Below, piece after piece: positions 13,345 to 38,222 of a stretch of 64,000 bases of DNA. The stretch covers positions 4,032,001 through 4,096,000 of the forward strand of contig OZ245006.1 of NCBI GenBank assembly GCA_965223545.1, written 5' to 3'. The stretch's first letter is position 1, and each line of letters starts with the position of its first letter. This stretch comes from Planctomycetota bacterium. Lineage in GTDB: Bacteria > Planctomycetota > UBA1135 > UBA2386. The position numbers and the translations under genes are program-made. Below the pieces are notes generated by a model. It was not told where the DNA came from, made no database searches, and was given only the letters and a program-made list of their open reading frames with translations.

Positions 13345-16248
13345 ATGGCCCGCACCGTGACCGGACCACGACGACCGACGGATGTGCGCGACCTGCTCGC
13401 CGAAGTCGCCTGGCTGCGGCGGCTCACGCGCGCGCTCACCGACGACGCGCTCGCCGCCGACGACCTGGCGCAGGACACGCTGGCCGCCGCCGTCGCCCAG
13501 CCACCCGGCCTGCACGGCGATCGGCTGCGCGCGTGGCTGCGGCGCGTCGCGCAGCGTCGCCGGTGGCGCGCGCAGGCGCGTGAGCGGCAGCGCTGCGCGG
13601 TCGAGCGCGCCGTGGCCCGGCCCGAGCGTGCCGCCGACGACCGCTTGGACGCGGCGCGGTGGCTGCACGACGCGGTCGCGGCGCTGCCCGAGCCGTACCG
13701 CACCGCGGTGACGCTGCGCTTCTTCGACGAGCTGTCGCCGCGGCAGCTGGCGCAGCGCCTCGGGATCTCGCCGGCGGCGGCGCGGCAGCGCGTGCACCGC
13801 GGTCTGGTGCTGTTGCGGCAACGCCTCGAGCGGCAGCCGCGCGGCGCCGAACGCCTCGCCGCGGCTCTTCTTCCCGCCCCCTTGCCCCTGCTGGCCATCA
13901 TGTCCGCGAAGCTCACCCTCCTCGGCCTGGGCGCCACCGCCGTGGCTGCAGCCGTTCTTCTCTCGCTGTGGTCGGGCGATGCCCCCGCTGCCTCGGCCCC
14001 CGAAACGCCGCCGGCGGCCGCAGGCGTGGCGGCGACCGCCGCCGCATCGGCGGCGCCTGCCGGTCCGGTGCGGCGCGCGCTCACCGACCGAGCGGCACCG
14101 ACCGCGACGGCAACCGCCGTTCTGCGCGTGCTCGGTCCGGCCGGCGCGCCGGCGCTGGGCGCGCGGGCGGCGTGGCGCGACGAGACGGGTGCACTGCACG
14201 CGCTGCCGCTCGCCACGGACACCGCCACCGCCCCACTGCCGCCGAACGCTCAGGGTTGCCGGCTCTATGCGGGCGCCCCGGGCTGCGTCACGACCTCCGC
14301 GCAGGTTCCGGCCCAACCCGCCGATGTCACGCTCCGGCTGGCGGCCGGCGCGACGGTGCGCGGCCGCGTGGTGGAGCGCGAGGGGCCGGCCGTCGACCTG
14401 CGCCTGCACATCGCGGCGGCCGCCGGCAACGTCGCGCGGGTCGAGGGCACGGCACTGCGCGCCGCCCTCGCCGAGCTCGGGCTCGCCGGCGTTCCCGACA
14501 CAGTGCTCACCGACGCGAGCGGTGCGTTCGTCATCGACGACGTGCCCAGCGATTGGCGTGGTGTGGTGCACGTGCCCAACACGCACGTCCTCTACCGCGT
14601 CGACGGCATCGCGGTCGAAGGCCTCGAACGCAGCACCCTGCACGCGCAAGGCGCATTGCGCGCGGGTGGCGACCACCTCTTGGAGACCCTGCGGCGACCG
14701 TGCGTGCGCGGCGTCGCGCAGCACCTCGGCAGCGGCGCGCCGTTCGTTGGCAAGCTGACGGCAACGCTTGTCGATCGCGACGACGCACAGGGCGGCGTGA
14801 TCTGGTTCGAGAACACCGACACAGCCGGGCACTTCGCGTTCGGCTTGCCGGTGCCGTTGACGGAGCTGCTGGACCCCACCGGCGTGCCGCCGCGCTTCGA
14901 CGCCGTGACGCTCGCGTTCCGCGGCGTCGCCGGCGGCCCGCTGACGTTCGATCTCGCCGGCCGGTCGATACCGATCGATCTCGGCGTCGTCGAGATCGGT
15001 GGCGTCGCGCGGGCGTTGCGCGTGCTCGACGCCGGCGGTGCCCCGTTGGCCGGTGCCGTGGTGGTCAGCGCTGGCGAGACCGCCACCACCGGCGAGGACG
15101 GCGCGGCGACGCTCGGCGTCGCTGCCGGCGGGGAGATCGAGGTCACCGCCGCCGGTCACGGTTGGCTGCGCGTCACCGTGCCGGTTGGGTCCGCGCCGTA
15201 CGAGGTGCGGCTGCCGGCTGCGCCGAGTCTGCGGCTCAGCGCCGGTGACCCCGACGCGCGGCTGGTGGTGCGCTGGAAGAGATCGCCGTTCTGCCTTCCC
15301 GAGCGGCCGACGGCGCCGTTCGCGTTTCAGCGGAGCCGCGGCGACAGCCCCTCGCTGACGTGGAGCGCGGACGGCGCCGGCGCGTGGACCATGCGCCCCG
15401 GCCTGCTGGTCGGCTTGGTCCCGGGCGCGGTGCTCGAGGCCGGCGTCGCCGACCTACTGGGCACGCCGCTCGGGTTGCGCACCTTGGTGGTCCCCGCCGC
15501 CGCGGGGGTGCACGACGTGGCGCTACCGGACGCCGCCGGCCACGTGCTCACGATCACGGTGACCGGCTCCGACGCAGTCCCCCTTGCCGACGCCGCTGTG
15601 TTCTTCGGCAACGCGACGCGCGGCCGTTCGCTGCGCACCGACGCCACCGGTCAGGTCGCGATTGCGCCGTTGGCCGCGGGCCGATTGCGGGGCTACGTGC
15701 AGGCCCGCGGGTACGTCCCGCACCACTTCTCGGTCGACCTCACCGCCGACCGCGCGCTGCGCATCGAGCTCTTGCCGGCGCACGCGCTCGCGGTGCGCGT
15801 GGTCGACAGCCGCGGCAAGGTGTGGACGCCGGCGAAGGTCGAGGTGCAAAGCCCGGACGGGACTCCGTACCAGCTCGAGGCGCTGCCGCCGCGACCCCTC
15901 ACGGTGCGCGCGAGGTTGGGCACGCGGAGCTACGAGATCGCCGTCGGCCCGCAGCAGACCGAAGTGACGCTTGCCGTGCCGGCGCACGGCGCGCTGCGCA
16001 TCGTCGGCGGGGAGAACGACGGCGGCGGCCGGCTGACGGCGACGATCGAAGCCGAGGACGGCCGAAGAGCCGTGGTGACCGCTGCCGCTGACGGCGGCTT
16101 GATGGTGCCACTATTGCCCGGCCGCTACCGGCTGCGGCTGGAGCGGGTGCGCGGCGGCGCGTTCGGCGTCCCCCGTACCGCCGACGTGGTGCTGGAGCGA
16201 ACCGTCGAGATCCGCGCCGGGGAGACCTTGCGCCTCGCCGCGGAATAG
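13345..16248 (+). CDS. ECF sigma factor with TM helix and carboxypeptidase-regulatory-like extracytoplasmic repeats
   Basis: Sigma2 (ADDLAQDT, LRAWLRRVA), sigma4 (LPEPYRTAVTLRFFDELSPRQLAQRLGIS), TM LTLLGLGATAVAAAVLLSLW, repeats TDASGAF/TDTAGHF/TDATGQ. Confidence 0.85.
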   Translation: MARTVTGPRRPTDVRDLLAEVAWLRRLTRALTDDALAADDLAQDTLAAAVAQPPGLHGDRLRAWLRRVAQRRRWRAQARERQRCAVERAVARPERAADDRLDAARWLHDAVAALPEPYRTAVTLRFFDELSPRQLAQRLGISPAAARQRVHRGLVLLRQRLERQPRGAERLAAALLPAPLPLLAIMSAKLTLLGLGATAVAAAVLLSLWSGDAPAASAPETPPAAAGVAATAAASAAPAGPVRRALTDRAAPTATATAVLRVLGPAGAPALGARAAWRDETGALHALPLATDTATAPLPPNAQGCRLYAGAPGCVTTSAQVPAQPADVTLRLAAGATVRGRVVEREGPAVDLRLHIAAAAGNVARVEGTALRAALAELGLAGVPDTVLTDASGAFVIDDVPSDWRGVVHVPNTHVLYRVDGIAVEGLERSTLHAQGALRAGGDHLLETLRRPCVRGVAQHLGSGAPFVGKLTATLVDRDDAQGGVIWFENTDTAGHFAFGLPVPLTELLDPTGVPPRFDAVTLAFRGVAGGPLTFDLAGRSIPIDLGVVEIGGVARALRVLDAGGAPLAGAVVVSAGETATTGEDGAATLGVAAGGEIEVTAAGHGWLRVTVPVGSAPYEVRLPAAPSLRLSAGDPDARLVVRWKRSPFCLPERPTAPFAFQRSRGDSPSLTWSADGAGAWTMRPGLLVGLVPGAVLEAGVADLLGTPLGLRTLVVPAAAGVHDVALPDAAGHVLTITVTGSDAVPLADAAVFFGNATRGRSLRTDATGQVAIAPLAAGRLRGYVQARGYVPHHFSVDLTADRALRIELLPAHALAVRVVDSRGKVWTPAKVEVQSPDGTPYQLEALPPRPLTVRARLGTRSYEIAVGPQQTEVTLAVPAHGALRIVGGENDGGGRLTATIEAEDGRRAVVTAAADGGLMVPLLPGRYRLRLERVRGGAFGVPRTADVVLERTVEIRAGETLRLAAE

Positions 16249-17632: not shown

Positions 17633-19468
17633 TCAGTCCAGGGCGAACGACGACAGGTACTTCTCGCGGTCGATGACCGGCGCGTTCTTCTGCGCGTCAC
17701 GGCAGATGACGAAGTTCTCCAGCACCAGCACGTCCATCTCGGTGCCCCAGAAACAGCGCAGCGCATCGTTCGGCGTGCAGACGATCGGCTCGCCGCGGAT
17801 GTTGAAGCTGGTGTTGATCAGCACCGGGCAGCCGGTCTTCTCCTTGAACTTGCGCATCAGCGCCGCGAGCCGGGGATTGCGACTGTCGTCGACGGTCTGC
17901 AAACGCGCCGAGAAGTCGACGTGGGTGATCGCCGGCACCACCGAGCGGATCTGGTGCAACTTCTCCAGGCCCGACTTGTCGGCGTCGATCGGCTTGCGCT
18001 TCTCGTCGTTGACCGGCGCGACGATCAGCATGTACGGGCTGTTCTGGTCTTTGCGGATGCCGAAGTACTCGTGCGCATCTTCCTCGAGCACGATCGGCGC
18101 GAACGGCCGGAACGACTCGCGGAACTTGATCTTCAGGTTCATCACGCTCTGCATCTTCGGGGAGCGTGCGTCACCGATGATGCTGCGCGCACCCAGCGCG
18201 CGCGGGCCGAACTCCATCTGCCCGTGGAACCAACCGATCACGTTCTCGGTGGCGATCAGCTCGGCGACCCGATCGACGAGCTCGAACTCGTGCTCGTATT
18301 CCTCGAACTGGACGTCCTCGCTCTGCAGCATCGCTCGGATCTCGTCGTTCTCGAACTTCGGCCCGAGCAGGCTGCCGTATTGGCTGTCGAGCGCCGGCTG
18401 CACGTCGCGCGGGTTGTCCAGCAGCTGGTGCCAGATGAACTGCGCGGTGCCCAATGCGCCGCCCGCATCACCGGCGGCCGGCTGGATCCAGATCTTGTCG
18501 AACGGGCCTTCGCGCAGGATGCGGCCGTTGCCGACGCAGTTGAGCGCGACGCCGCCCGCCAGGCAGAGGTTGGACTTGCCGGTGACTTCGCGGGCGTGGC
18601 GCGTGGTGCGCAGCATCACCTCTTCCGTCACCGCTTGGATCGACGCCGCCATGTCCATGTGGAACTGGGTCAGATCGGTCTCCGGCCGGCGTGGATCGGC
18701 GCCGAACAGCGCGTGGAACTTCGGCGACGTCATCCGCAGGCCGGCGGCGTAGTCGAAGTACTGCATGTCGAGCCGATAGCTGCCGTCCTCTTTGAGGTCG
18801 ATCAGGTGGTCGAAGATCTTGTCGCGGTACTTGGGCTCGCCGTAGGGCGCCAGGCCCATCAGCTTGTACTCGCCGGAGTTGACCTTGAAGCCGCAGTAGT
18901 AGGTGAACGCCGTGTAGAGCAGGCCGAGCGAATGCGGGAAGCGGATCTCGCGCAGCATGCGCAGGTTGTGGCCCTCGCCGACGGCGATCGAGGTGGTCGC
19001 CCACTCACCGACGCCGTCCATGGTGAGCACCGCCGCGTCCTCGAACGGGCTCGGGAAGAACGCGCTCGCCGCGTGGCTCTCGTGGTGCTCGGTGAAGACG
19101 AACGGGTTCTTGGGCTTGCCGCCGAGCCCCTTCTTCAAGATGCGCGGGATGTGCAGCTTGTCCCTCAGCCACACCGGCAGCGCCTTGGTGAACGACGAGA
19201 ACCCCGACGGTGCGTAGGCGAGGTAGCTCTCCATCAACCGATCGAACTTCAGCAGCGGCTTGTCGTAGAAGCCGACGAAGTCGAGATCGGAGACCCCGAT
19301 GCCAGCGCGCTCCAGGCAGTACTCCACCGCCTTGGCGGGGAAGTCCGAGTCGTGCTTCTTGCGGGTGAAGCGCTCCTCCTGGACGGCCGCGACGATCTCG
19401 CCGTCGCGGAGCAGAGCGGCGGCCGAATCGTGGTAGAAGGCCGAGATTCCAAGGATGTGCGTCGCCAT
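17633..19468 (-). CDS. O-carbamoyltransferase (NodU/CmcH/SxtI family)
   Basis: ILGISAFYHDSAAAL, QEERFTRKKHD, HHESHAASAF, DGVGEW, EYKLMGLAPYG, GGVALNCVGNG, EFGPRALGARS, NTSFNIRGEPIV. Confidence 0.95.
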   Translation of the reverse strand: MATHILGISAFYHDSAAALLRDGEIVAAVQEERFTRKKHDSDFPAKAVEYCLERAGIGVSDLDFVGFYDKPLLKFDRLMESYLAYAPSGFSSFTKALPVWLRDKLHIPRILKKGLGGKPKNPFVFTEHHESHAASAFFPSPFEDAAVLTMDGVGEWATTSIAVGEGHNLRMLREIRFPHSLGLLYTAFTYYCGFKVNSGEYKLMGLAPYGEPKYRDKIFDHLIDLKEDGSYRLDMQYFDYAAGLRMTSPKFHALFGADPRRPETDLTQFHMDMAASIQAVTEEVMLRTTRHAREVTGKSNLCLAGGVALNCVGNGRILREGPFDKIWIQPAAGDAGGALGTAQFIWHQLLDNPRDVQPALDSQYGSLLGPKFENDEIRAMLQSEDVQFEEYEHEFELVDRVAELIATENVIGWFHGQMEFGPRALGARSIIGDARSPKMQSVMNLKIKFRESFRPFAPIVLEEDAHEYFGIRKDQNSPYMLIVAPVNDEKRKPIDADKSGLEKLHQIRSVVPAITHVDFSARLQTVDDSRNPRLAALMRKFKEKTGCPVLINTSFNIRGEPIVCTPNDALRCFWGTEMDVLVLENFVICRDAQKNAPVIDREKYLSSFALD

Positions 19469-19648
19469 GGATGCGGTGGAAGGGCGGGACGAAGGGCGGA
19501 GAAGAATACCGAAATCGCGGCGGGTGGGCGGGGGCGCCGGCCGCCGTTTTTTCGGTGGACGGGTTGTGCCGTCGCGTTCCCGCCCTGGAGCCGGCCCCGC
19601 ATGGGGCAGTCGGCGCGGCCGGAGCGACAACGAGCCCGTGGGAGATCC

Positions 19649-21728: not shown

Positions 21729-22375
21729 TTGACCGTCATCTTCCCAAAATGGACGAACCACCTCCCCACGATCGCCGCGGTGGGCGGCGTGTTGGGGTTC
21801 GGTCTGGTCGTCGTCGTCGTCACCTTCCTGTTCTCGCCGAACTACACCGACGTCGGCTACGCGCCGAAGCAGCCGGTCCCGTACAGCCACAAGCTGCACG
21901 CGGGCCTGCTGGGCTTCGACTGCCGCTACTGTCACCAGAACGTCGAGGACGGCCCGCACGCGAGTGTGCCCAGCACCGCGACGTGCATGAACTGTCACAC
22001 GCAAGTGAAGGCAGAGAGCGAACTTCTGGCTCCCGTGCGGGCGAGCGCCGCGTCCGGTGACCCGGTCGAGTGGGTCAAGGTGCACATGCTGCCCGACTAC
22101 GTCTACTTCGACCACTCGGTGCACGTGAACCTCGGCGGCGAGGCCGCGATCGGCTGCACCAGCTGCCATGGCCGGGTCGACCAGATGGAGGTCGTGCGGC
22201 AGGAGAAGCCGCTGAGCATGAGCTGGTGCTTGGAGTGCCACATGGCGCCCGAGCACCACCTGCGGCCGATCGGCGAGCTGACCAACATGGAGTACGCGCA
22301 CGATCCAGCAGTCGGCGAGCGGCTGAAGAAGGAACTCGACATCAACCCCCCGATCCACTGCTCGGCATGCCACCG

Positions 22376-22379
<4 letters not shown>
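21729..22379 (+). CDS. actA: Alternative complex III subunit ActA, pentaheme cytochrome c
   Basis: TTG start after GAGG; N-terminal TM; five CxxCH (CRYCH, CMNCH, CTSCH, CLECH, CSACH); PKQPVPYSHKLH. Confidence 0.93.
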
Positions 22380-25504
<3,125 letters not shown>

Positions 25505-25508
25505 AGCG

Positions 25509-26936
25509 ATGACCACCTCGATCACCGTTATCGACGAGCCCGAGAGCGCGGTACGGCGCGCTCCGATCGTCGAGGGCACCAACACCCTCGGCACGGTCAC
25601 CGAGACCATCGCCCGGGTCACCGAGTCCGCGACGCCGAAGGGGTGGTACCTCCTGTTCGGCATCTCGGTCGCGTGCTTCCTCAACCTGTTCGCCATGATC
25701 GGCTACCTGATCTGGGCGGGCGTCGGCGTGTGGGGCAACAACATCCCCGTCGCCTGGGGTTGGCCGATCGTCAACTTCGTTTTCTGGATCGGCATCGGTC
25801 ACGCCGGCACGCTGATCTCGGCGATCCTCTTCCTGTTCCGGCAGAAGTGGCGCACCGCGATCAACCGCTGGTCGGAGGCGATGACCATCTTTGCGGTGAT
25901 GGCGGCCGGCATCTTCCCCGCCATCCACGTCGGCCGCATCTGGGTCATCTACTGGGTGTTCCCGGTGCCCAACCAGATGGGCATGTGGCCCAACTTCAAG
26001 AGTCCGCTGCTGTGGGACGTGTTCGCGGTGAGCACGTACTTCACGGTGTCGGTGCTGTTCTGGTACGTGGGCCTGGTGCCCGACCTCGCTACCTACCGCG
26101 ACCGCTGCGTCAAGGCCGGCCGGATGGTGGCGGCGCGCATCTACGGCTTGTTTGCCCTGGGTTGGCACGGCAGCAACCGCCACTGGATCAACTACGAGAA
26201 GGCCTACCTGATCCTGGCCGCGCTGAGCACGCCGCTCGTGCTCTCGGTGCACAGCATCGTGTCCTTCGACTTCGCGGTGTCGATGCTGCCCGGCTGGCAC
26301 ACCACGATCTTCCCGCCCTACTTCGTCGCCGGCGCGATCTTCTCCGGCTTCGGCATGGTGTTGACGCTGCTGATCCCGGCGCGCAGCTGGCTCAAGCTGC
26401 AGGACCTGGTGACGCTGAACACGCTCGACAACATGGCGAAGATCATCCTGCTGACGGGCACGATGGTCGGCTACGCCTACGGGATGGAGTTCTTCATCGC
26501 GTGGTACAGCGGTGAGCCCTACGAGCAGTACGCGTTCATGAACCGTGCCTTCGGCCCCTACGCCTGGGCCTACTGGATCATGGTCTCGTGCAACGTGATC
26601 TCGCCGCAGCTGTTCTGGTTCCGCAAGCTGAGGCGGAGCCCGATGGCGCTGTTCATCATCTCGATCTTCGTCAACATCGGGATGTGGTTCGAGCGCTTCG
26701 TGATCGTGGTCACCTCGCTGCACCGCGACTTCTTGCCGGGTAGCTGGGCCTACTTCTCCCCGACGCTGATCGACATCCTGACGTTCGTCGGCAGCTTCGG
26801 CCTGTTCATGACCTTCTTCCTGCTGTTCTGCCGCTTCCTGCCGATCATCGCCATCAGCGAGATCAAGGGCACGATGGAGGTGGCGGATCCGCACCACGGC
26901 CACCACGGCAACGGCGCGAAGGAAGCCCACGGATGA
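25509..26936 (+). CDS. actC: Alternative complex III subunit ActC (NrfD/PsrC family)
   Basis: [54 protein letters not shown]. Confidence 0.95.
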
Positions 26937-27472
26937 GCGACACCAAGTACTACGGGGTGGTCGCCGAGTTCGACTCGGCGTCCGCGATCTACCACGCGGC
27001 GGAGAAGACCGTTGCGGAGGGGTATTCGAAGGTCGACAGCCACACGCCGTTCCCCGTGCACGGCATGGACGCGGTCCTGCGCCAGGGGCCCAGCCACCTG
27101 GGCTGGGTGTGCGCGGTGATGGGTGCGCTCGGCATCGGCGGCGCCCAGCTGATGATGTGGTGGATGAACGGCGTCGACTACCCGATCTGGGTGAGCGGCA
27201 AAGAGCCCTACGCCTGGCCGCCGACGATCCCGATCACCTTCGAGTGCATGGTGCTGCTGGCCGCGTTCGGCGCGGTGTTCGGCATGTTTGGCATGAACAA
27301 GCTGCCGCGGCTGCACCACCCGCTGTTCAACCACAGCACGATCCACCGCTGCTCCGACGACCGGTTCTTCCTGTCGATCGAAGCCGTGGACCCCAAGTTC
27401 GACGCACAGCGCACGAGGGAGTTCTTGCAGAGCATCGGTGGCGCACACGTCGAGCTGGTGGAGGAGGCGTGA
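26933..27472 (+). CDS. actD: Alternative complex III subunit ActD (DUF3341)
   Basis: [39 protein letters not shown]. Confidence 0.93.
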
Positions 27473-28197
27473 TGGTCTTGCGCAACGCGAGCCTGCTTCT
27501 CTCGGTCGTCGCCCTCGGCGCCTGCAGCGGTGGCATCTCCAAGCACCCGCCGATCCACCCCAACCTCGACATGGACTTCCAGCAGAAGCTGAAGGCACAG
27601 TCGGAGGCGTCGTTTGCCGGATGGACCGATGGTCGCGGCATGCGGCTGCCGGTCGACGGCACCGTGTCCCGCAAGGGTCACGTCGGCGATCCGGCGACCC
27701 TGCTCGCGCGCTACGACCGCGACGGGGACGGAGCGCTGAGTCCGACCGAGGCCGCGACGCTGGCCGTTGGCGGCCGCCGGTTCGCGGTCGGCGATCGCGA
27801 GGGCGATGGCTTGCTGGATGCCGGCGACCTGCAGCTGCTGGCGTCGCTCTACCACTACAAGGACGGCACCGACTTCGTCGTCGACAACGCCCTGCCCGCG
27901 ACCCAGGAGGTCCTCGAGCGCGGCCGCGAGCGGTTCAACATCCACTGCGCGGTGTGTCACGGGGAGAGCGGTGCCGGCGGCATCGTCGCCAGCCGCTGGC
28001 CGAACAAGATCCCGAGCCTGGTCAACGACGTCGACGGCCCGACGCGCGACCGGTTGGTCGCGCTCAAGCACGGCGAGATCGTCGACGTGATCAGCAACGG
28101 CCGCGCTCTGATGCCGGCCTATGGGTCGCAGGTCCACATCGAGGACCGCTGGGCGATCGCCCACTACGTGAAGGCCCTGCAGAAGCACTTCAACTGA
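27472..28197 (+). CDS. actE: Alternative complex III subunit ActE, monoheme cytochrome c lipoprotein with EF-hand-like insert
   Basis: Lipobox LGAC; DMDFQQKLKAQ, MRLPVDGTVSR, RGRERFNIHCAVCHG, MPAYG, DRWAIAHYV. Confidence 0.9.
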   Translation: MVLRNASLLLSVVALGACSGGISKHPPIHPNLDMDFQQKLKAQSEASFAGWTDGRGMRLPVDGTVSRKGHVGDPATLLARYDRDGDGALSPTEAATLAVGGRRFAVGDREGDGLLDAGDLQLLASLYHYKDGTDFVVDNALPATQEVLERGRERFNIHCAVCHGESGAGGIVASRWPNKIPSLVNDVDGPTRDRLVALKHGEIVDVISNGRALMPAYGSQVHIEDRWAIAHYVKALQKHFN

Positions 28198-28204
28198 GCC
28201 AGAG

Positions 28205-29435
<1,231 letters not shown>

Positions 29436-29437
<2 letters not shown>

Positions 29438-29468
29438 GTTTTCAGCCACCGAGTCTTTCAGCCACGAG
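29436..29468 (+). repeat. Short imperfect direct repeat
   Basis: GAGT-TTTCAGCCAC-C-GAGTC-TTTCAGCCAC-GAG between actF and next gene. Confidence 0.5.
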
Positions 29469-29474
29469 GCAACG

Positions 29475-29843
29475 ATGAGTACCGCAACGCACGAGCACAC
29501 CGCGCATGGCACCGGCACTCCTCCTGGCGCACCACCCGCGATCGATCCCGAGCGCGACATCGACGCCACCGCGACGATTCTTTGGCTGGTGATCGGGCTG
29601 GTGTTCGTGGTCGTCACGCTTTGGATCCTGAGTGCGGTCTTCGATGCGTCGCTGCGCGATGAGCAGTTCATCAAGATCGACAGCGTGCCGGCTACCGAGC
29701 TGAGCCAGTTCCGCGCCGCGGAGGCGCAGCTGCTCGCCAACCCGACGTCGGCCCCGGCCGCGGTCGGTGAGCGGCCGATGGCCGAATCCGCCGCGGCGCT
29801 GCGCGCGGCCACCGACGAGATCATTCGCGGCTACGTCCGCTGA
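29475..29843 (+). CDS. Single-TM protein in ACIII operon (possible ActG-like subunit)
   Basis: GAGG RBS; TM ILWLVIGLVFVVVTLWIL; position between actF and SCO. Confidence 0.7.
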   Translation: MSTATHEHTAHGTGTPPGAPPAIDPERDIDATATILWLVIGLVFVVVTLWILSAVFDASLRDEQFIKIDSVPATELSQFRAAEAQLLANPTSAPAAVGERPMAESAAALRAATDEIIRGYVR

Positions 29844-29878
29844 CGCCGACCTCCCCCACCGAACACTTCGCAAACCGC

Positions 29879-30775
29879 ATGCTGCCAGCGCAACGCACCC
29901 CACCGTCGAGACGCCGATCCCGCCGCGCCTGCGCGCGCCGCGGGCTGAGCGTATTGCCGGTCGCGGCGTCGACTCTGGTCGGGGCGACCCTGACCGGAGC
30001 TGCGTGGGCGCAGCACACGGCCGTCGACATGCCGACCCAGGATCTGGCCGTCGAGATCCTGGATCGCCGCGGCACCGAGGTGCCACGCGATCTCGGCTTC
30101 GTCGACGAGAGCGGCCGAAGCGTCGTTCTCGGCGACTACTTCGACGGGCGCCGGCCGGTGATCCTCAACCTCGGCTACTACGGCTGCCCGAGTCTTTGCG
30201 GTGACGTGATCAACGCGATGGTCGACACGCTGCAGGAGATCGGCCTCGAGATCGATGCCGACTACCAGGTGGTGTCGGTCAGCATCGACCCCAAGGAGAA
30301 GCCGCCGCTGGCGGCCGCCAAGAAGGCGTCCTACCTGGCCGTGCTCGATCGCCCGGGCGGGGAGCGCGGCTGGCACTTCCTCTGTGGCGGTGCCGAGGAA
30401 TCGGCGGCGCTGGCCGACGCGGTGGGCTTCCAGTACGAGTGGAACGAGTTCGACCACCGCTGGGACCACGGCGCCGGCTTGTTCGTGCTGTCTCCCACCG
30501 GCGTGCTGAGCCAGGTGTTGCAGGGCGTGCTCTACGAGCCGCGCGACCTGCGCCTGGCGCTGGTCGAAGCCTCCGACGGCGTCATCGGCACGGCGTGGGA
30601 CCGTATCCTGCTGTCTTGCTACTCGTACGATCCGTCCACCGGCTCGTACGACCTGATGGTCTGGACCGTGGTGCGCATCGGTGGTGCGCTGACCGTGGCC
30701 GGCATCGCGCTCATGCTGTTCTTCCTCTGGCGGCGGGAGCGGACGCGCTCGGCGCAGCCGTCCCTCGCCAGTTGA
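29879..30775 (+). CDS. SCO family copper chaperone
   Basis: YYGCPSLCG (CxxxC), VSIDP, WHFL, C-terminal LLSCYSYDP plus TM; start may be downstream. Confidence 0.88.
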   Translation: MLPAQRTPPSRRRSRRACARRGLSVLPVAASTLVGATLTGAAWAQHTAVDMPTQDLAVEILDRRGTEVPRDLGFVDESGRSVVLGDYFDGRRPVILNLGYYGCPSLCGDVINAMVDTLQEIGLEIDADYQVVSVSIDPKEKPPLAAAKKASYLAVLDRPGGERGWHFLCGGAEESAALADAVGFQYEWNEFDHRWDHGAGLFVLSPTGVLSQVLQGVLYEPRDLRLALVEASDGVIGTAWDRILLSCYSYDPSTGSYDLMVWTVVRIGGALTVAGIALMLFFLWRRERTRSAQPSLAS

Positions 30776-30796
30776 CCCTTCCTCTCTGAAGATCCC

Positions 30797-31774
30797 GTGT
30801 TCGCCATCCAAGATCCCCAGAGCTGGCTGCCCAAGGCGGCGTCGTCCTTCGCCGACCACATCGATCCGGTCTGGCGGCTGACGTTCTGGCTGTGCGTCTT
30901 CTTCTTCGTTCTGATCACCGGGATCCTGCTCTACTCCGTCCTCAAGTGGCGGCGGCGGACCCCCGAACAGCCGGCAGCGGCGGACACCACCCACAACACG
31001 ATGTTGGAGGTGGTTTGGACGCTGGTTCCGCTGGTCATCATGATGGTGCTGTTCGCCATGGGCTGGCGCGGCGTCAAGGACATGACCGTCGCCCCGACCG
31101 ATTGCCTTCAATACAAGGTGATCGCGGAGAAGTGGAACTGGACCATCCTGCACCCCGGCGCCACCGGCAGCTACGCCGAGCAGGTCGAGGGCTACGCCGA
31201 CCCGCTGCCGGTGATGTACGTGCCGGTCAACACCAACGTCAAGGTGCACTTGCAGAGCAAGGACGTGCTGCACTCGTTTTACGTGCCCGAGTTCCGCTGC
31301 AAGCGCGACGTGGTGCCGGGACGCATGCAGTTCGTCTGGTTCCGAGCGACCGAGCTCGGTGTCTATCAGATCAAGTGCGCCGAGTACTGCGGCGACCGGC
31401 ACTCCTACATGCGCGGTCTGGTCAAGGTCGTCACCCAAGAGGAGTACGACGAGAAGCCGTGGATGGTGATTCCGGACGACCCGATCGAGTACGGCAAGCT
31501 GATCTGGCAGGCGCTGCGCGCCTGCAAGCAGTGCCACACGATTGACGGCTCGGAGGCCATCGGGCCCACTTTCAAAGGGCTGTGGGGCAAGACCGAGACC
31601 CTGGTCGACGGCAGCACCGTGGTCGTCGACCGCGACTACGTCGCCAAGTCGATCCGCACGCCGCAGGCGGACATCGTCAAGGGGTTCGAGAACGCGGGGG
31701 CGATGACCGCCTACAACGACATCACGGAGGCCGAGATCGACGCGATCTGCGCCTTCCTGGAATCCATCAAGTGA
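30797..31774 (+). CDS. ctaC: Cytochrome c oxidase subunit II with fused cytochrome c (caa3 type)
   Basis: LEVVWT, DVLHSF, CuA motif [12 protein letters not shown], heme c CKQCH. Confidence 0.95.
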
Positions 31775-31793
31775 CGTTCAGCGAGCCACCGAG

Positions 31794-33445
<1,652 letters not shown>

Positions 33446-33449
<4 letters not shown>

Positions 33450-34144
33450 GTGGCCACGGCCACGCCCTGCCGACGACGCCGACGCCCGAGGGGTTCATCC
33501 CCCACAAGGTCGCGCATCACTTCAACACGCACGTCCAGGAGTACCAGTCGTGCAAGCTGGTGTTCTGGCTGTTTCTCGCGACCGAGATCATGCTCTTCGG
33601 GGGCCTGTTCGCGGCGTACTTCGTCTACCACAACCTGTATCCGGAGACCTTCCGGGTCGGTGGCCAACAGCTGGACTGGACGCTCGGCGCGCTCAACACG
33701 TCGATCCTGCTCTCCAGCTCGTGGACGATGGCGATGGGCGTGCGCGCCGCGCAGCTCAGCCAGAAGAAGGCGATGCTGACCTACCTGGGACTGACCGTGG
33801 CGGGAGCGGTGGGGTTCATGGTGGTCAAGTACTTCGAGTACTCGGGCAAGTTCTCACACGGCTTGTACCCCGGCCGCTACTTCCACCCGCACGGTGAGTA
33901 CGCCGCCTTGTTCGAGGGCGTGGAGTGGCCCAACCTGTTCTTCAGCCTCTACTTCACGATGACGGGCATCCACGGCCTGCACGTCGTGATCGGCGCCATC
34001 CTGATCGTTTGGGTCATGTGGCGCGGCGCCAAGGGCCACTACCACAGCGGCCACTACCTGCCCGTCGATCTGGTCGGGCTCTACTGGCACCTCGTCGACC
34101 TGATCTGGATCTTCCTGTTCCCCTTGCTCTACTTGGTGCCCTGA
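33446..34144 (+). CDS. ctaE: Cytochrome c oxidase subunit III
   Basis: [43 protein letters not shown]. Confidence 0.95.
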
Positions 34145-34533
34145 TGTCGCACGACGCTCACACGCATGCCGGTGATGACGCCGTGGGGTTTCATCCCCCG
34201 CACGTCGTGCCGGCGTTCCTCTTCGTCAAAGTGTTGTTCGCTCTGTTGATCTTGACGGTGGTCACGGTCGCGGTGACGCGCGTCGACTTCGGCTCGCTCA
34301 ACATGTTCGTGGCGATGAGCATTGCCGCCCTCAAGGCTTCCTTGGTGATGACCTTCTTCATGCACCTGAAGTGGGACACCGCCATCAACAACATCGCGAT
34401 CCTCAGCTCGTTCTTGTTCTTGGCGCTGCTGTTCATCTTCACGCTCGCCGATCTCAACACGCGCGATCAGGTCGACCCGATCCTCGTGCAGCCGACGCCG
34501 GTGGAGGCGCCCGGTCAGGGATTGGTGCACTGA
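34144..34533 (+). CDS. ctaF: Cytochrome c oxidase subunit IV
   Basis: LLILTVVTV, IAALKASLVMTFFMHLKWD. Confidence 0.9.
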   Translation: MSHDAHTHAGDDAVGFHPPHVVPAFLFVKVLFALLILTVVTVAVTRVDFGSLNMFVAMSIAALKASLVMTFFMHLKWDTAINNIAILSSFLFLALLFIFTLADLNTRDQVDPILVQPTPVEAPGQGLVH

Positions 34534-34692: not shown

Positions 34693-37491
34693 GTGTTCTT
34701 CCACCCCGAGGGGTTGGAGGCCGCGCACGAGGTGATGCCCGAAGAGCTGCGGGCGGGCAGCGAGCAGGTCGCGTTCCAGATCCTGCTCCCCACCGAGGAG
34801 TCCGCGCTGCTGCCGATCTCGGTGTCGCAGGTGCGCGCCAACGAGGGGACCGCGGCGCGGATCGCGCCCGCGCTGTGGACCATGACCGGTGTGGGCGTGT
34901 CGCTGGACGTCGCGGTGCCGGCGCTGGCGGCGACGGAGCCCGAGGCCGAGATGCCGGGGCTGTGCTTCTTGGTCGCGGTCTCTCGCCTGGTGATGGCGAT
35001 GGTCGAACGCGGCGAGTTCGCACCGGCCGAGAGCAAGAGCGTGCTGCAGGTCGTGCCGGTGTGGTCCGAACCCTCGATCCGCGCGGTCGGGGTGATCGCG
35101 GAGATGGCGCCGGAGTCGACGCTCACGGCGCGCTTCGCCTCCGGCGACGACCCGGTCTACGCGGTGACGCCGCGCAACGAGACCGTCAGCATGGTCGGCC
35201 ATTTCCTGGATGCCGTCGCTGGGGCTCGGCAGCCGGCATGGGATCGGGCCGAGCGCCTGCCGCGGTCGTTTTGGCGGACCGCGCCAGGACCGGTCCTGGA
35301 AGTGATCCGCCCCGAGCGAGAGCTCGAGGAAGGCGCTCCCTGGGGTCTGCAGCTGTGGTTTCGGCCGGTGCCTGGCGGCCGCTTGCTGTTCAGCTTCGAA
35401 GAGCTCGAAGAACGCCACCACGCGCGCTTGTTTCCCGACTCGCTCACCGCCGAGGGGCTGGCGTTGATCGAGATCAAGATGGAAGACCTGGCCCGGCGCA
35501 TGCCCGCGCTGCGCCGCGCGCGCAACATGAGCGACGGGCGCGCGTCGCTCAACCGCCAGGAGCTCGATCAGATCCTCGACCACCTGCCGTTGCTCGAGGC
35601 CGAGGGCATCGAGGTCACCCTGCCGGGTCTCGAGGAAGTGCATCGCCTGGCGGCGCGCGTCAAGCTGACCGAGGTTTCCAGCGAGTCCGACCCGCGGCCG
35701 TGGTTCGAGTTCAACTGGCAGCTGGCGATCGGCGACCGCGTCCTCGACAGCAAGGAGTTCGACGCGCTGGTGTCGGCGCGCAGCCCGCTGGTCGAGCTGC
35801 GCCGCGGCACGGTGCTGCTGAGCCCCAAGGACAGAGAAGCGCTGGCCACGCTGAAGAAGCGCGCCAAGGACGAGGGGCGCAAGATCTCGTTCTTCGAGGC
35901 CCTGCGGCTCAAGCTGGGAGGTGCGACGCACCTGCACGGACTGGCGATCGAATCGTTGGAGAGCGCCCCCCGCCTCGACGAGCTGACCAAGTGCCTCGAG
36001 CAGGCCCGTTCGCTCGAGCCGCGCGAGCAACCAAAGGAGTTCGTCGGCGAGCTGCGGCCCTACCAGGCCCGCGGCCACGCGTGGCTCTACTACCTGCTCG
36101 ACCAGGGCTTCGGCGCATGCTTGGCCGACGACATGGGTCTCGGCAAGACCGTGCAGGCGATCGCCGTGATCCTGGACTGGCGCCGCGATCCGGAGCGCCG
36201 CGGCCCGATGCTGCTGGTGTGTCCGGTGTCGGTGCTCGGCAATTGGCGCCGCGAGCTGCACCGGTTCTCGCCGAGCCTGGCGGTGTCGATGCACCACGGC
36301 AAGGGACGCGCGCGCACCGAGGAGGACTTCGACCGGATCATCGCCGAGAACGACGTGATCCTGACCAGCTACAACCTGCTGCAGCGGGATCAGGAGCTGA
36401 TCGAGAAGATCTCGTTCGAAGGGGTGATTCTCGACGAGGCGCAGAACATCAAGAACCCGCGCACGCGACAGTCGAAGGCCGCGCGCCGCCTCAAGGGTCG
36501 GTTCCGCATGACGCTGACCGGCACCCCGCTGGAGAACCGTCCGCTCGACCTCTGGTCGATCATGGACTTCCTCAACGAGGGCCTGCTGGGGACGCGCACC
36601 AACTTCGTGCAGACCCTCGAGCACCCGATCGTCAAGCAGCGCAGCCGCAGCACGATGTCGACTCTGGCGCGTCTGGTCCGCCCGTTCGTGCTGCGCCGGT
36701 TGAAGACCGATCCGGAGATCATCCACGACCTCCCCGAGAAGTCGGAGCAAGTCGTGGTCGCGAGTCTGTCGCGCGAGCAGGCCGTCCTCTACGAGTCCGT
36801 GGTGCGCTCCGGCTTGGCCGAGGTCGAGCTCGCCGCCGAGGGCATCCAGCGGCGCGGCGCGATCCTCACCACTCTGTTGCGACTCAAGCAGGTGTGCAAC
36901 CACCCCGCCCACTACCAGATGGACGGCTCCACCCTGCCGGGGCGCTCGGGCAAGCTCGACCTGCTGACCGAGATGTTGGTCGAAGCGCTGGACGAGGGCG
37001 ACCGGTGCCTGGTGTTCACTCAGTTCAAGGAGATGGGCACGCTCTTGAAGACCCATATCGAGAGCGTGGTCGAGGGCAAGGTGCTCTTCCTGCACGGCAG
37101 CGTGCCGCAAAAGGACCGCGAGTCGATGGTCGCCGAGTTCCAGCAGGGCGCCGAGGACGGTCCGCGCGTGTTCGTGCTGTCGCTCAAGGCGGGCGGCACC
37201 GGCCTCAACCTGACCGAGGCCAATCGGGTGTTCCACTTCGATCGGTGGTGGAACCCGGCGGTGGAAGACCAGGCCACCGACCGCGCCTTCCGCATCGGCC
37301 AACGGCGCAACGTCTTCGTACACAAGTTCGTGTGCACCGGCACTCTCGAGGAGCGCATCCAGACGATGCTGGAACGCAAACGAGAGGTGGCGGACAATCT
37401 GCTCGGCGCCGGTGAGGGCTGGTTGACCGAGCTGTCGAACGAGGAGCTGCGCAAGCTCTTGGTGCTGGACAAGGCGGAGGCGTTGGCTTGA
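34693..37491 (+). CDS. SNF2-family helicase/ATPase
   Basis: LRPYQ, LADDMGLGKT, ILDEAQNIKN, LTGTPLEN, SGKL, SLKAGGTGLNL, WWNPAVEDQATDRAFRIGQ; start approximate. Confidence 0.93.
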   Translation: MFFHPEGLEAAHEVMPEELRAGSEQVAFQILLPTEESALLPISVSQVRANEGTAARIAPALWTMTGVGVSLDVAVPALAATEPEAEMPGLCFLVAVSRLVMAMVERGEFAPAESKSVLQVVPVWSEPSIRAVGVIAEMAPESTLTARFASGDDPVYAVTPRNETVSMVGHFLDAVAGARQPAWDRAERLPRSFWRTAPGPVLEVIRPERELEEGAPWGLQLWFRPVPGGRLLFSFEELEERHHARLFPDSLTAEGLALIEIKMEDLARRMPALRRARNMSDGRASLNRQELDQILDHLPLLEAEGIEVTLPGLEEVHRLAARVKLTEVSSESDPRPWFEFNWQLAIGDRVLDSKEFDALVSARSPLVELRRGTVLLSPKDREALATLKKRAKDEGRKISFFEALRLKLGGATHLHGLAIESLESAPRLDELTKCLEQARSLEPREQPKEFVGELRPYQARGHAWLYYLLDQGFGACLADDMGLGKTVQAIAVILDWRRDPERRGPMLLVCPVSVLGNWRRELHRFSPSLAVSMHHGKGRARTEEDFDRIIAENDVILTSYNLLQRDQELIEKISFEGVILDEAQNIKNPRTRQSKAARRLKGRFRMTLTGTPLENRPLDLWSIMDFLNEGLLGTRTNFVQTLEHPIVKQRSRSTMSTLARLVRPFVLRRLKTDPEIIHDLPEKSEQVVVASLSREQAVLYESVVRSGLAEVELAAEGIQRRGAILTTLLRLKQVCNHPAHYQMDGSTLPGRSGKLDLLTEMLVEALDEGDRCLVFTQFKEMGTLLKTHIESVVEGKVLFLHGSVPQKDRESMVAEFQQGAEDGPRVFVLSLKAGGTGLNLTEANRVFHFDRWWNPAVEDQATDRAFRIGQRRNVFVHKFVCTGTLEERIQTMLERKREVADNLLGAGEGWLTELSNEELRKLLVLDKAEALA

Positions 37492-38222
37492 GCGAAGGGC
37501 GCGGCATCACTTTGGGAGAACGCTGGCGCCGTGAGAGCAACCGCGGTGTCGACGCCGAACAGCTCGACAAAGTGCTGGCGATGCTGCCATCGATCCGCCA
37601 CCCGAAAGTGCGCGTGCGCCACGGCGCGATCCACGCCGAGATGGAGGGCTCGATGGGCTCCATCAACGAGGTGAGCATCCACGTCGCGACCCTCGGCTCG
37701 CGGACGTGGCCGCAGGTCGCCCGCGTCCTCAAGCGCTCGTCGAGCATGATCGAGGCGCTGGAGTCGGGCCGGGTGCCGCGTTCGTTGGATCGGCTGGTGG
37801 CGCGGATCTCGGGCGAGCCGCTGTTTCCCGAGTCGCGCCGGGTGACCTCGGCCTGCTCGTGCGGGGCCCCGGACATGCCCTGCCGGCACATTCTCGGGCT
37901 GCACGAGCTGTTCGCCCGAAGGCTCGACGATCGGCCCTGGGAGCTGCTGACGATCCGCGGCGTCGAGGTCACCGACCTGCTGGCGCGCGCCAAGAGCGCG
38001 GAGCCCGATCCGGACCTGCCGCCGCTCGCGTTCGGCGCCACCGAGGAGCCGGTTCTGTTCCCCGAGGGGGAAGAGGGCGATCTCGATTCGGTGCTCGCGC
38101 CGGCCCAGATCGCCAGCCTGCTCGGCGTCTCCCCCGCCAACGTCTACGACGCGGTCGCCGACGCCCTGCGTCGATACGTCGAAAGCCCGTCCGTCCCGCC
38201 CCCGACCCCCGACCCCAACTGA
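37488..38222 (+). CDS. SWIM zinc-finger protein
   Basis: PLFP...CSCGAPDMPCRH (CxC-x-CxH); start overlaps SNF2 stop. Confidence 0.85.
   Translation: MSEGRGITLGERWRRESNRGVDAEQLDKVLAMLPSIRHPKVRVRHGAIHAEMEGSMGSINEVSIHVATLGSRTWPQVARVLKRSSSMIEALESGRVPRSLDRLVARISGEPLFPESRRVTSACSCGAPDMPCRHILGLHELFARRLDDRPWELLTIRGVEVTDLLARAKSAEPDPDLPPLAFGATEEPVLFPEGEEGDLDSVLAPAQIASLLGVSPANVYDAVADALRRYVESPSVPPPTPDPN

Follow-up and report, generated by a model that had tools for sequence, protein, structure and literature searches.

What is a pair of EF-hand loops doing inside a monoheme cytochrome of a respiratory complex? The question is raised by a stretch of 64,000 nucleotides from a bacterium of the Planctomycetota (the window in what follows), in which the gene at 27472..28197 (+) encodes a protein of 241 aa that was initially annotated as ActE, the monoheme cytochrome c lipoprotein of alternative complex III (ACIII), with an inserted EF-hand pair. 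The identification as ActE is borne out by PDB and structural alignment, by the heme-binding residues and by the place of the gene in its operon. Namely, the top PDB match is ActE of Rhodothermus marinus (6f0k_E, E 1.7e-33), and in a wide structural search the predicted core superimposes on ActE of Roseiflexus castenholzii (6loe_E) with a Z of 16.5 and an rmsd of 1.4 Å over 110 residues. The solved ActE chains from R. marinus (6F0K_E), R. castenholzii (6LOD/6LOE_E), C. aurantiacus (8K9E_E) and F. johnsoniae (6BTM_E) have in common with the window protein a lipoprotein N-terminus, an extended arm and a class I monoheme domain with CxxCH and Met. In the window protein, a signal peptide (27472..27525, +) ends, by inspection of the sequence, in a lipobox-like LGA-C18, the cysteine of which is invariant in all 14 aligned insert-bearing sequences, while a single heme c attachment motif, C159-x-x-C162-H163 (27946..27960, +), and M214 (28111..28113, +), the presumed distal heme ligand, lie in a predicted class I cytochrome c fold. 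C159, C162, H163 and M214 are invariant in 52 of 52 aligned ActE, and His/Met ligation of the heme is reported for R. marinus ActE (PMC5928083). As far as sequence features can tell, then, this is a normal ActE in its lipobox, its CxxCH and its Met ligand, and both its assembly into ACIII and its delivery of electrons to the oxidase would be expected from homology and operon.

The operon is equally typical. The gene sits between actD and actF of an actABCDEF cluster, as in known ActE, with actA (pentaheme), actB, actC and actD upstream (21729..27472, +), where open reading frames and Pfam give c7-type multiheme, Fer4, NrfD and ActD (204 bits) matches. Downstream (28205..34533, +), open reading frames, Pfam/NCBIfam and locus comparison give actF, a small membrane protein, SCO1/SenC and caa3 subunits II(c), I, III and IV, the caa3 genes following as in R. 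marinus. The gene actF, which has no Pfam or NCBIfam match, was called by its position and a weak similarity to ActC. The small protein at the actG position (29475-29843, +; 122 aa, a single membrane span) is labeled by position only and has no Pfam/NCBIfam family over cut-off, and it is kept in most relatives (32-45%); no other gene of the operon is as rich in A/T-ending codons as the one encoding it (GC3 0.84). That the oxidase is of the caa3 type, as had been assumed at the outset, can be read from its genes, because subunit II has the CuA ligands and a C-terminal CxxCH/Met domain; the subunit IV model is also over cut-off. In the insert-less relatives the gene order from actA to oxidase subunit IV, including sco, is unchanged (31 loci compared) and subunit II carries a c-heme as well, and there is no extra operon gene in the two insert-bearing genomes seen with genomic context. 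Outside the operon, a divergent gene for a NodU/CmcH-type carbamoyltransferase (17633-19630, -; below the cut-off of the NodU model) lies a few kb upstream of actA, a linkage that the window shares with 17 of the 22 nearest genome loci. After the oxidase genes, the translated reading frames at 34693-38222 (+) give a helicase-like gene, which we take to be of the SNF2 type, and then a small, presumably SWIM-like gene. A similar helicase-like frame occurs in the other insert-bearing genome (locus L001, 17641-20133), in which oxidase subunit I (L001:14335-15932) aligns in two pieces in different frames with a break near 14415, a frameshift that may be due to an assembly error.

The unusual part of the protein is found at aa 70-126 (27679..27849, +), where alignments, the model and structural alignment all place a compact EF-hand pair, inserted into the linker that joins the N-terminal arm to the cytochrome domain. 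The two loops lie between two conserved ActE blocks, exactly as initially claimed: loop 1, DRDGDGALSPTE (aa 82-93; 27715..27750, +), is canonical with D1, D3, D5, G6, L8, S9 and E12, and loop 2, DREGDGLLDAGD (aa 108-119; 27793..27828, +), is atypical with D1, E3, D5, G6, L8, D9 and D12, its start lying 26 residues from that of loop 1. While the insert is confirmed, the size of about 55 aa first given for it has to be reduced. Judging from sequence distances, the net gain is some 43-51 aa, because MDxQ and CxxCH are 125 aa apart here, as compared to 81-82 aa in three close insert-less relatives and 73-76 aa in many other ActE. R. marinus ActE has a short linker where the window protein has these extra residues: query residue 67 pairs with R. 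marinus residue 71 and the profile resumes at R. marinus residue 80, and the solved ActE chains either match the query in two separate stretches or align with its C-terminal part alone. We rejected a frameshift or faulty assembly as the source of the insert, since 14 other sequences have it in frame. A contig from one sequencing run also spans 27300-28400 without a single difference, although this run may be where the DNA itself came from; three other runs yielded short pieces only.

How good are these loops as EF-hands? They were scored against a 12-residue pattern, a 13-position PROSITE-type pattern and a relaxed pattern. Loop 1 fits the 12-residue consensus, in which sense its description as canonical holds, but fails the 13-position pattern; loop 2, with Glu at position 3 and Asp at position 12, fails both and fits the relaxed pattern only. 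Pfam EF-hand_6 scores 20.4 bits with the whole protein and 25.1 bits with the excised segment, against a cut-off of 25. For the family the picture is clearer, in that 12 of 14 insert-bearing members match Pfam EF-hand_1 at E <= 0.01, each of the two loops agrees with the 12-residue pattern in 11 of 14, and the oxygen ligands of a pair at positions 1, 3, 5, 9 and 12, along with the hydrophobic residue at position 8, are present at family level. The ortholog alignment, motif scans, structure prediction and distribution survey suggested in the initial annotation thus recover the pair, with the qualification that both loops fail the PROSITE-type pattern and that the whole-protein Pfam score is below cut-off. 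What did not survive is the claim that the segment is enriched in A/T-ending or rarer codons: the four codons named are present, but 7 of 57 A/T-ending codons are no significant excess over the 4.4 +/- 2.0 expected from the operon, and among 3236 overlapping 57-codon windows from the other operon genes, 15% score no higher in adaptation index and 7% no higher in GC3. The bias not being significant, codon usage was dropped as evidence that the insert is foreign or recent.

An AlphaFold2 model built on a 52-sequence alignment (mean pLDDT 86, pTM 0.71; pLDDT 88-97 for blocks 71-130) predicts helices at 74-81, 91-94, 102-107 and 117-125 and single-residue strands, or bridges, at 89 and 115, that is, two helix-loop-helix units paired through their position-8 strands. 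Residues 72-127 of the model superimpose on EF-hand pairs from 4zcu_A (Z 7.3, 2.0 Å over 54 residues), 1tiz (Z 7.1, 1.9 Å over 55) and 1a2x_A (Z 6.7, 1.7 Å over 53), although a Z below 8 may, by the tool's own note, reflect merely a common arrangement, and for this reason the EF-hand assignment is taken to rest on sequence motif and predicted fold together, with the motif carrying it. More broadly, the predicted insert matches the SCaMC-1 regulatory domain (4ZCU), a calmodulin-like protein (1TIZ), polcalcin (5OTJ) and troponin C (1A2X) with Z 6.7-7.3 and an rmsd of 1.7-2.3 Å over 53-57 residues, and has in common with them paired 12-residue loops, a hydrophobic position 8 and the helix-loop-helix arrangement. 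It differs from them in loop starts that are 25-27 residues apart, in its periplasmic location and in lying inside another protein; in calmodulin-type lobes the loop starts are about 36 residues apart. These EF-hand matches surfaced only in the wide structural search, and Foldseek with the whole model returned cytochromes only among the matches listed. Against the PDB, a 14-sequence profile hits over the insert CML18 (E 1.8e-5), ALG-2, SCaMC-1 and, at E 0.001-0.005, lanmodulins. Helix-like flanks for each loop, a further point of the initial annotation, are therefore seen in the AlphaFold2 model but not when the insert is folded alone from a single sequence, which gives a poor model (pLDDT 62) with loop 2 as a hairpin and the EF pair not reproduced; this prediction counts against a structural role for the lobe.

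Taken at face value, the model also bears on what the lobe could do. The helix leaving loop 1 has 4 residues only and the linkers between the loops 13-15, which would leave little room for an opening of the calmodulin type, and inner helices as short as these would be more in keeping with a rigid lobe than with a switch of the calmodulin kind. A pTM of 0.71, in a model with about 65 poorly packed N-terminal residues, suggests that the lobe has a fixed position on the cytochrome domain. That said, the exit helix of the pair is predicted to lead to a stretch some 20 residues ahead of the heme-binding helix, and this would favor Ca2+-dependent tuning, as raised in the initial annotation, with filling of the EF-hands shifting the heme potential of ActE or its docking on caa3 subunit II, such that respiration responds to external Ca2+. 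We consider such tuning unlikely, even if it has other points in its favor. Plant NDB1 has an EF-hand. Ca2+ activation of this enzyme is a reported precedent in electron transport (PMC4587368), and in R. marinus ActE has been proposed to pass electrons straight to caa3 (PMC5928083), the type of oxidase found in the window. NDB1 is described as a flavoprotein that senses cytosolic Ca2+, unlike the periplasmic ActE (PMC4587368), and cytochrome cL, likewise a respiratory-type redox protein with a Ca2+ site, is reported to hold its metal beside a heme propionate through Gly, Asp and Tyr, not in an EF-hand domain (PMC9728263).

If the loops bind metal, their ligands should be visible in the evolutionary record. 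A search of a 90%-clustered database gave 507 matches, and among the 120 best the EF pair is confined to the first 14, whose identity to the query is 48-59%, and the other 106 have no EF-like loop; together with genome locus L001, these 14 make up 15 distinct insert-bearing ActE. In loop 1, D1, D/N3, D/N/S5 and L/I8 are present in 15 of 15 sequences and E12 in 14; in loop 2, D1 and L/V8 are present in all 15 and N/D3, D5 and E12 in 14 each. Asp occupies position 9 in 17 of 30 loops, and the loop starts are 25-27 residues apart throughout. Across the 14-row alignment the ligand columns are 98% D/E/N/S, with a mean pairwise identity of 0.69, as compared to 14% and 0.25 for the other loop columns, so that the metal sites are under selection while the surface around them drifts; the non-conservation of ligands that would have spoken against metal binding is thus not what one sees. 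The window protein itself has the sole loop with Glu3 and the sole loop 2 with Asp12 (1 of 15 each), meaning that, judged on ligands, its loop 2 is atypical for a clade in which most relatives have a canonical one. For tuning these data cut both ways: both sites are kept across about 50% divergence, but the loop 2 ligands are altered in the window genome and the surface of the insert evolves faster than its host protein. The mean identity of the insert, 0.40 versus 0.68 for the rest of the mature protein, is unlike that of a tightly conserved protein interface, and we count it in favor of a structural lobe.

Some positions outside the ligands are nonetheless conserved in the insert. F104, ahead of loop 2, is invariant (14 of 14), R91 and L97 are each kept in 10 of 14 sequences, P98 in 9 and F99 in 8, and a conserved extension of 12 aa precedes the first EF helix in 10 of 15 members (P0003, P0006-P0014). 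R91, L97, P98 and F99, along with the extension, could form a partner interface, which would count against a purely structural role and for the Ca2+-filled lobe being a permanent docking surface for ActB, ActA, an ActH-like subunit, a second electron acceptor or a second ACIII. Published work offers some room for this: ACIII of R. marinus is reported to have extra periplasmic mass near ActE, namely ActH and an unassigned density above ActE (PMC5928083), and ActE of Flavobacterium johnsoniae is proposed to serve a second acceptor (PMC8552683). The same residues and extension are, however, not kept in the five short-type members, the window ActE among them, from which the 12-aa extension is absent altogether, and the operons of the two insert-bearing genomes with context hold no gene for an additional partner; docking is in our judgment distinctly improbable. 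In the cytochrome domain, D188 (15 of 15 with the insert versus 3 of 91 without) and R192 (15 of 15 versus 1 of 91) track the insert, as do K234 and F240, and this could mean functional coupling, again counting against a purely structural role. Co-adaptation of the cytochrome domain to the insert is partly undercut by the nearest relative, the insert-less L083, which already has the equivalents of K234, F240, L183 and V184.

How widespread is the insert, and where did it come from? Within the family, 84 of 91 genomes are ActE-positive and two (G000 and G068) match end to end across the insert, which is absent from the remaining 82 of the 84 among the matches listed, the 18 lowest lying outside those; in the class, the same two of 339 genomes pass E 1e-52, with 7 candidates scored per genome. 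A library clustered at 50% identity gave 11,642 protein matches, the best 150 of which include one cluster (P0009) of ActE with the pair and four long EF-repeat proteins that match the insert only. EF loops occur in the linker in 17 of 431 measurable rows, not de-duplicated and all from the insert-bearing clade (25 of 456 matches being unmeasurable), and a pattern scan of metagenomes found the insert in none of 80 loci among the matches listed. The expectation that characterized ActE lack such a pair agrees with the short linker of R. marinus and with these counts, and two of 339 genomes and one of the 150 best clusters also dispose of the objection that the insert is already common in ActE. 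The literature searched contains no description of an EF-hand in ActE, supplements and most subscription papers lying outside that search, the term EF-hand was not found in the ACIII literature searched, and the word calcium is not in the main text of two ACIII papers (PMC5928083, PMC7439408). By its sequence, the EF-bearing ActE is a new form of a known subunit, confined to one clade. The narrow distribution weighs against tuning as well, given the 82 family genomes with ActE that do without the insert and an operon content that shows no matching change.

The insertion site, as far as the alignments go, is a length-variable and permissive linker. Other ActE carry long, unrelated and often low-complexity linkers at the same site (e.g. 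P0151, P0191, P0243 and L175), with MDxQ-to-CxxCH distances up to about 150 aa (146 in P0151, 141 in P0191, 137 in L175), a few values above that being due to a match of the pattern to a Met further upstream. Other lineages have ActD-ActE fusion proteins (P0072, P0075, P0082, P0151, P0234), several with long acidic low-complexity linkers where the EF pair would be. With the insert columns removed, FastTree places all 15 insert-bearing sequences in one clade with support 0.975 (106 sequences, 169 columns), and IQ-TREE on 51 of the 106 gives the clade 74.7/49, or 91.8/98 with the insert-less L083 included. A single insertion is likely on these trees, L083 may be a secondary loss, and the insert is old, because it is common to members across about 50% sequence divergence. 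As to its source, 8 six-frame segments of the window genome show the paired-loop pattern, ActE among them, and the others are multi-EF proteins or EF pairs inside propeller proteins of the PQQ type. Three compact pairs inside such beta-propeller proteins (L194, L196 and L200, at G000:C1:1469506, 5396717 and 3515368) may be singled out, one of which shares its reading frame with a tricorn-like S41 protease. Compact bacterial EF repeats (P0126, P0143, P0235 and, in the window genome, L194, L195, L197 and L200) have the same loop type, a spacing of 23-28 within pairs and matches to the insert part of the ActE profile, but they are multi-copy or sit in beta-propeller proteins, whereas the ActE pair sits in a respiratory cytochrome. 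As a class, such repeats of secreted proteins probably supplied the insert, but the search turned up no individual donor, the best in-genome match being at E 1.2e-6.

Would a passenger explain all this just as well? One could argue that the insert brings no benefit and that its ligands are retained for no other reason than the damage an unfolded insert would do to ActE. The site is hypervariable, the genome holds a pool of similar EF pairs, the distribution is narrow, loop 2 is drifting in the window genome and L083, as the nearest insert-less relative, may have lost the insert. A clean deletion, though, would lift the burden, yet 15 of 15 members, 48-59% identical to the query, have retained both loops, and we give a tolerated passenger only a slim chance.

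The metal need not be calcium, and a lanthanide-binding module akin to lanmodulin comes to mind. Lanmodulin (6MI5, 8FNS) likewise has periplasmic EF-hands with short linkers: adjacent loops of the insert are separated by 13-15 residues, close to its roughly 13, a value of 13 being reported between its EF2 and EF3 (PMC13738343). What is more, Asp is frequent at position 9 and there are weak profile matches to 9pi2_A and 6mi5_X (E 0.001-0.003). Pro at loop position 2, which is linked to lanthanide selectivity (PMC13172409, PMC13128445), is however found in 0 of 30 loops; the insert has two loops where lanmodulin has four, and is fused into ActE rather than standing alone. In the genome, which is 91% complete, no PQQ alcohol dehydrogenase exceeds the TIGR03075 cut-off, similar loop spacing occurs in unrelated repeat proteins, and EF proteins of the Ca2+ type score as well or better in the profile search. 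Judged by sequence the insert is not a lanmodulin, and a lanthanide role, rejected on Pro2, loop number and the missing dehydrogenase, is exceedingly improbable.

This brings us to the explanation that we favor and to which we would give an even chance, namely that the insert is a periplasmic structural module, normally filled with Ca2+. A compact two-loop EF module, of a type often met in the secreted proteins of these bacteria, would have entered the ActE linker, which tolerates changes in length, a single time in one lineage of planctomycetes. Given the lipobox, the heme c and the reported periplasmic location of ActE (PMC5928083), the lobe would face the periplasm with the rest of the protein, and by its ligands it would bind one or two Ca2+, loop 2 perhaps weakly in the window genome. 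The sites would normally be filled, because periplasmic Ca2+ follows that of the environment, as reported in PMC8833165; this same dependence speaks against tuning, Ca2+ at the periplasmic location being set by the environment. In most waters and sediments sites of micromolar affinity would, we infer, be full. Some soils have 10-150 uM Ca2+ (PMC8833165), at which a weak site would not be saturated, and this counts against normally filled sites. A filled lobe would be rigid, would continue into the hairpin preceding the heme-binding helix and would brace the linker against the cytochrome domain. Its job would be structural, lending stability and giving ACIII a new surface on its outer side, and in this respect the stabilization put forward in the initial annotation as one of two possibilities is plausible. 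Electrons would pass from ActA through the ActE heme to caa3 as in relatives, with no Ca2+ switching under normal conditions. Unrelated inserts in the same linker, the unchanged operon and the other EF pairs in the genome all count in favor of such a structural lobe.

What would this mean for ACIII? The role assigned to ActE differs between organisms: in R. marinus the protein has been proposed as the donor to caa3, but in F. johnsoniae aa3 activity does not require it. An ActE with a folded, putatively metal-binding lobe marks the linker as an exposed, graft-tolerant site, and ActE with and without the insert, and with and without Ca2+, make a clean comparison for how the subunit sits in the complex. 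If Ca2+ did change electron transfer, bacterial respiration would here be regulated by an unusual signal. In particular, we think it decidedly doubtful that the quinol-to-oxygen chain is sensitive to external Ca2+ through an EF pair that controls either the heme potential or which acceptor is used, caa3 or another carrier; this, if real, would be a case of periplasmic EF-hands controlling a respiratory complex in a bacterium, of which the literature searched describes none. If the lobe is structural, as is more likely, the finding would be one of lineage-specific domain accretion, of interest mainly to specialists in ACIII and EF-hands.
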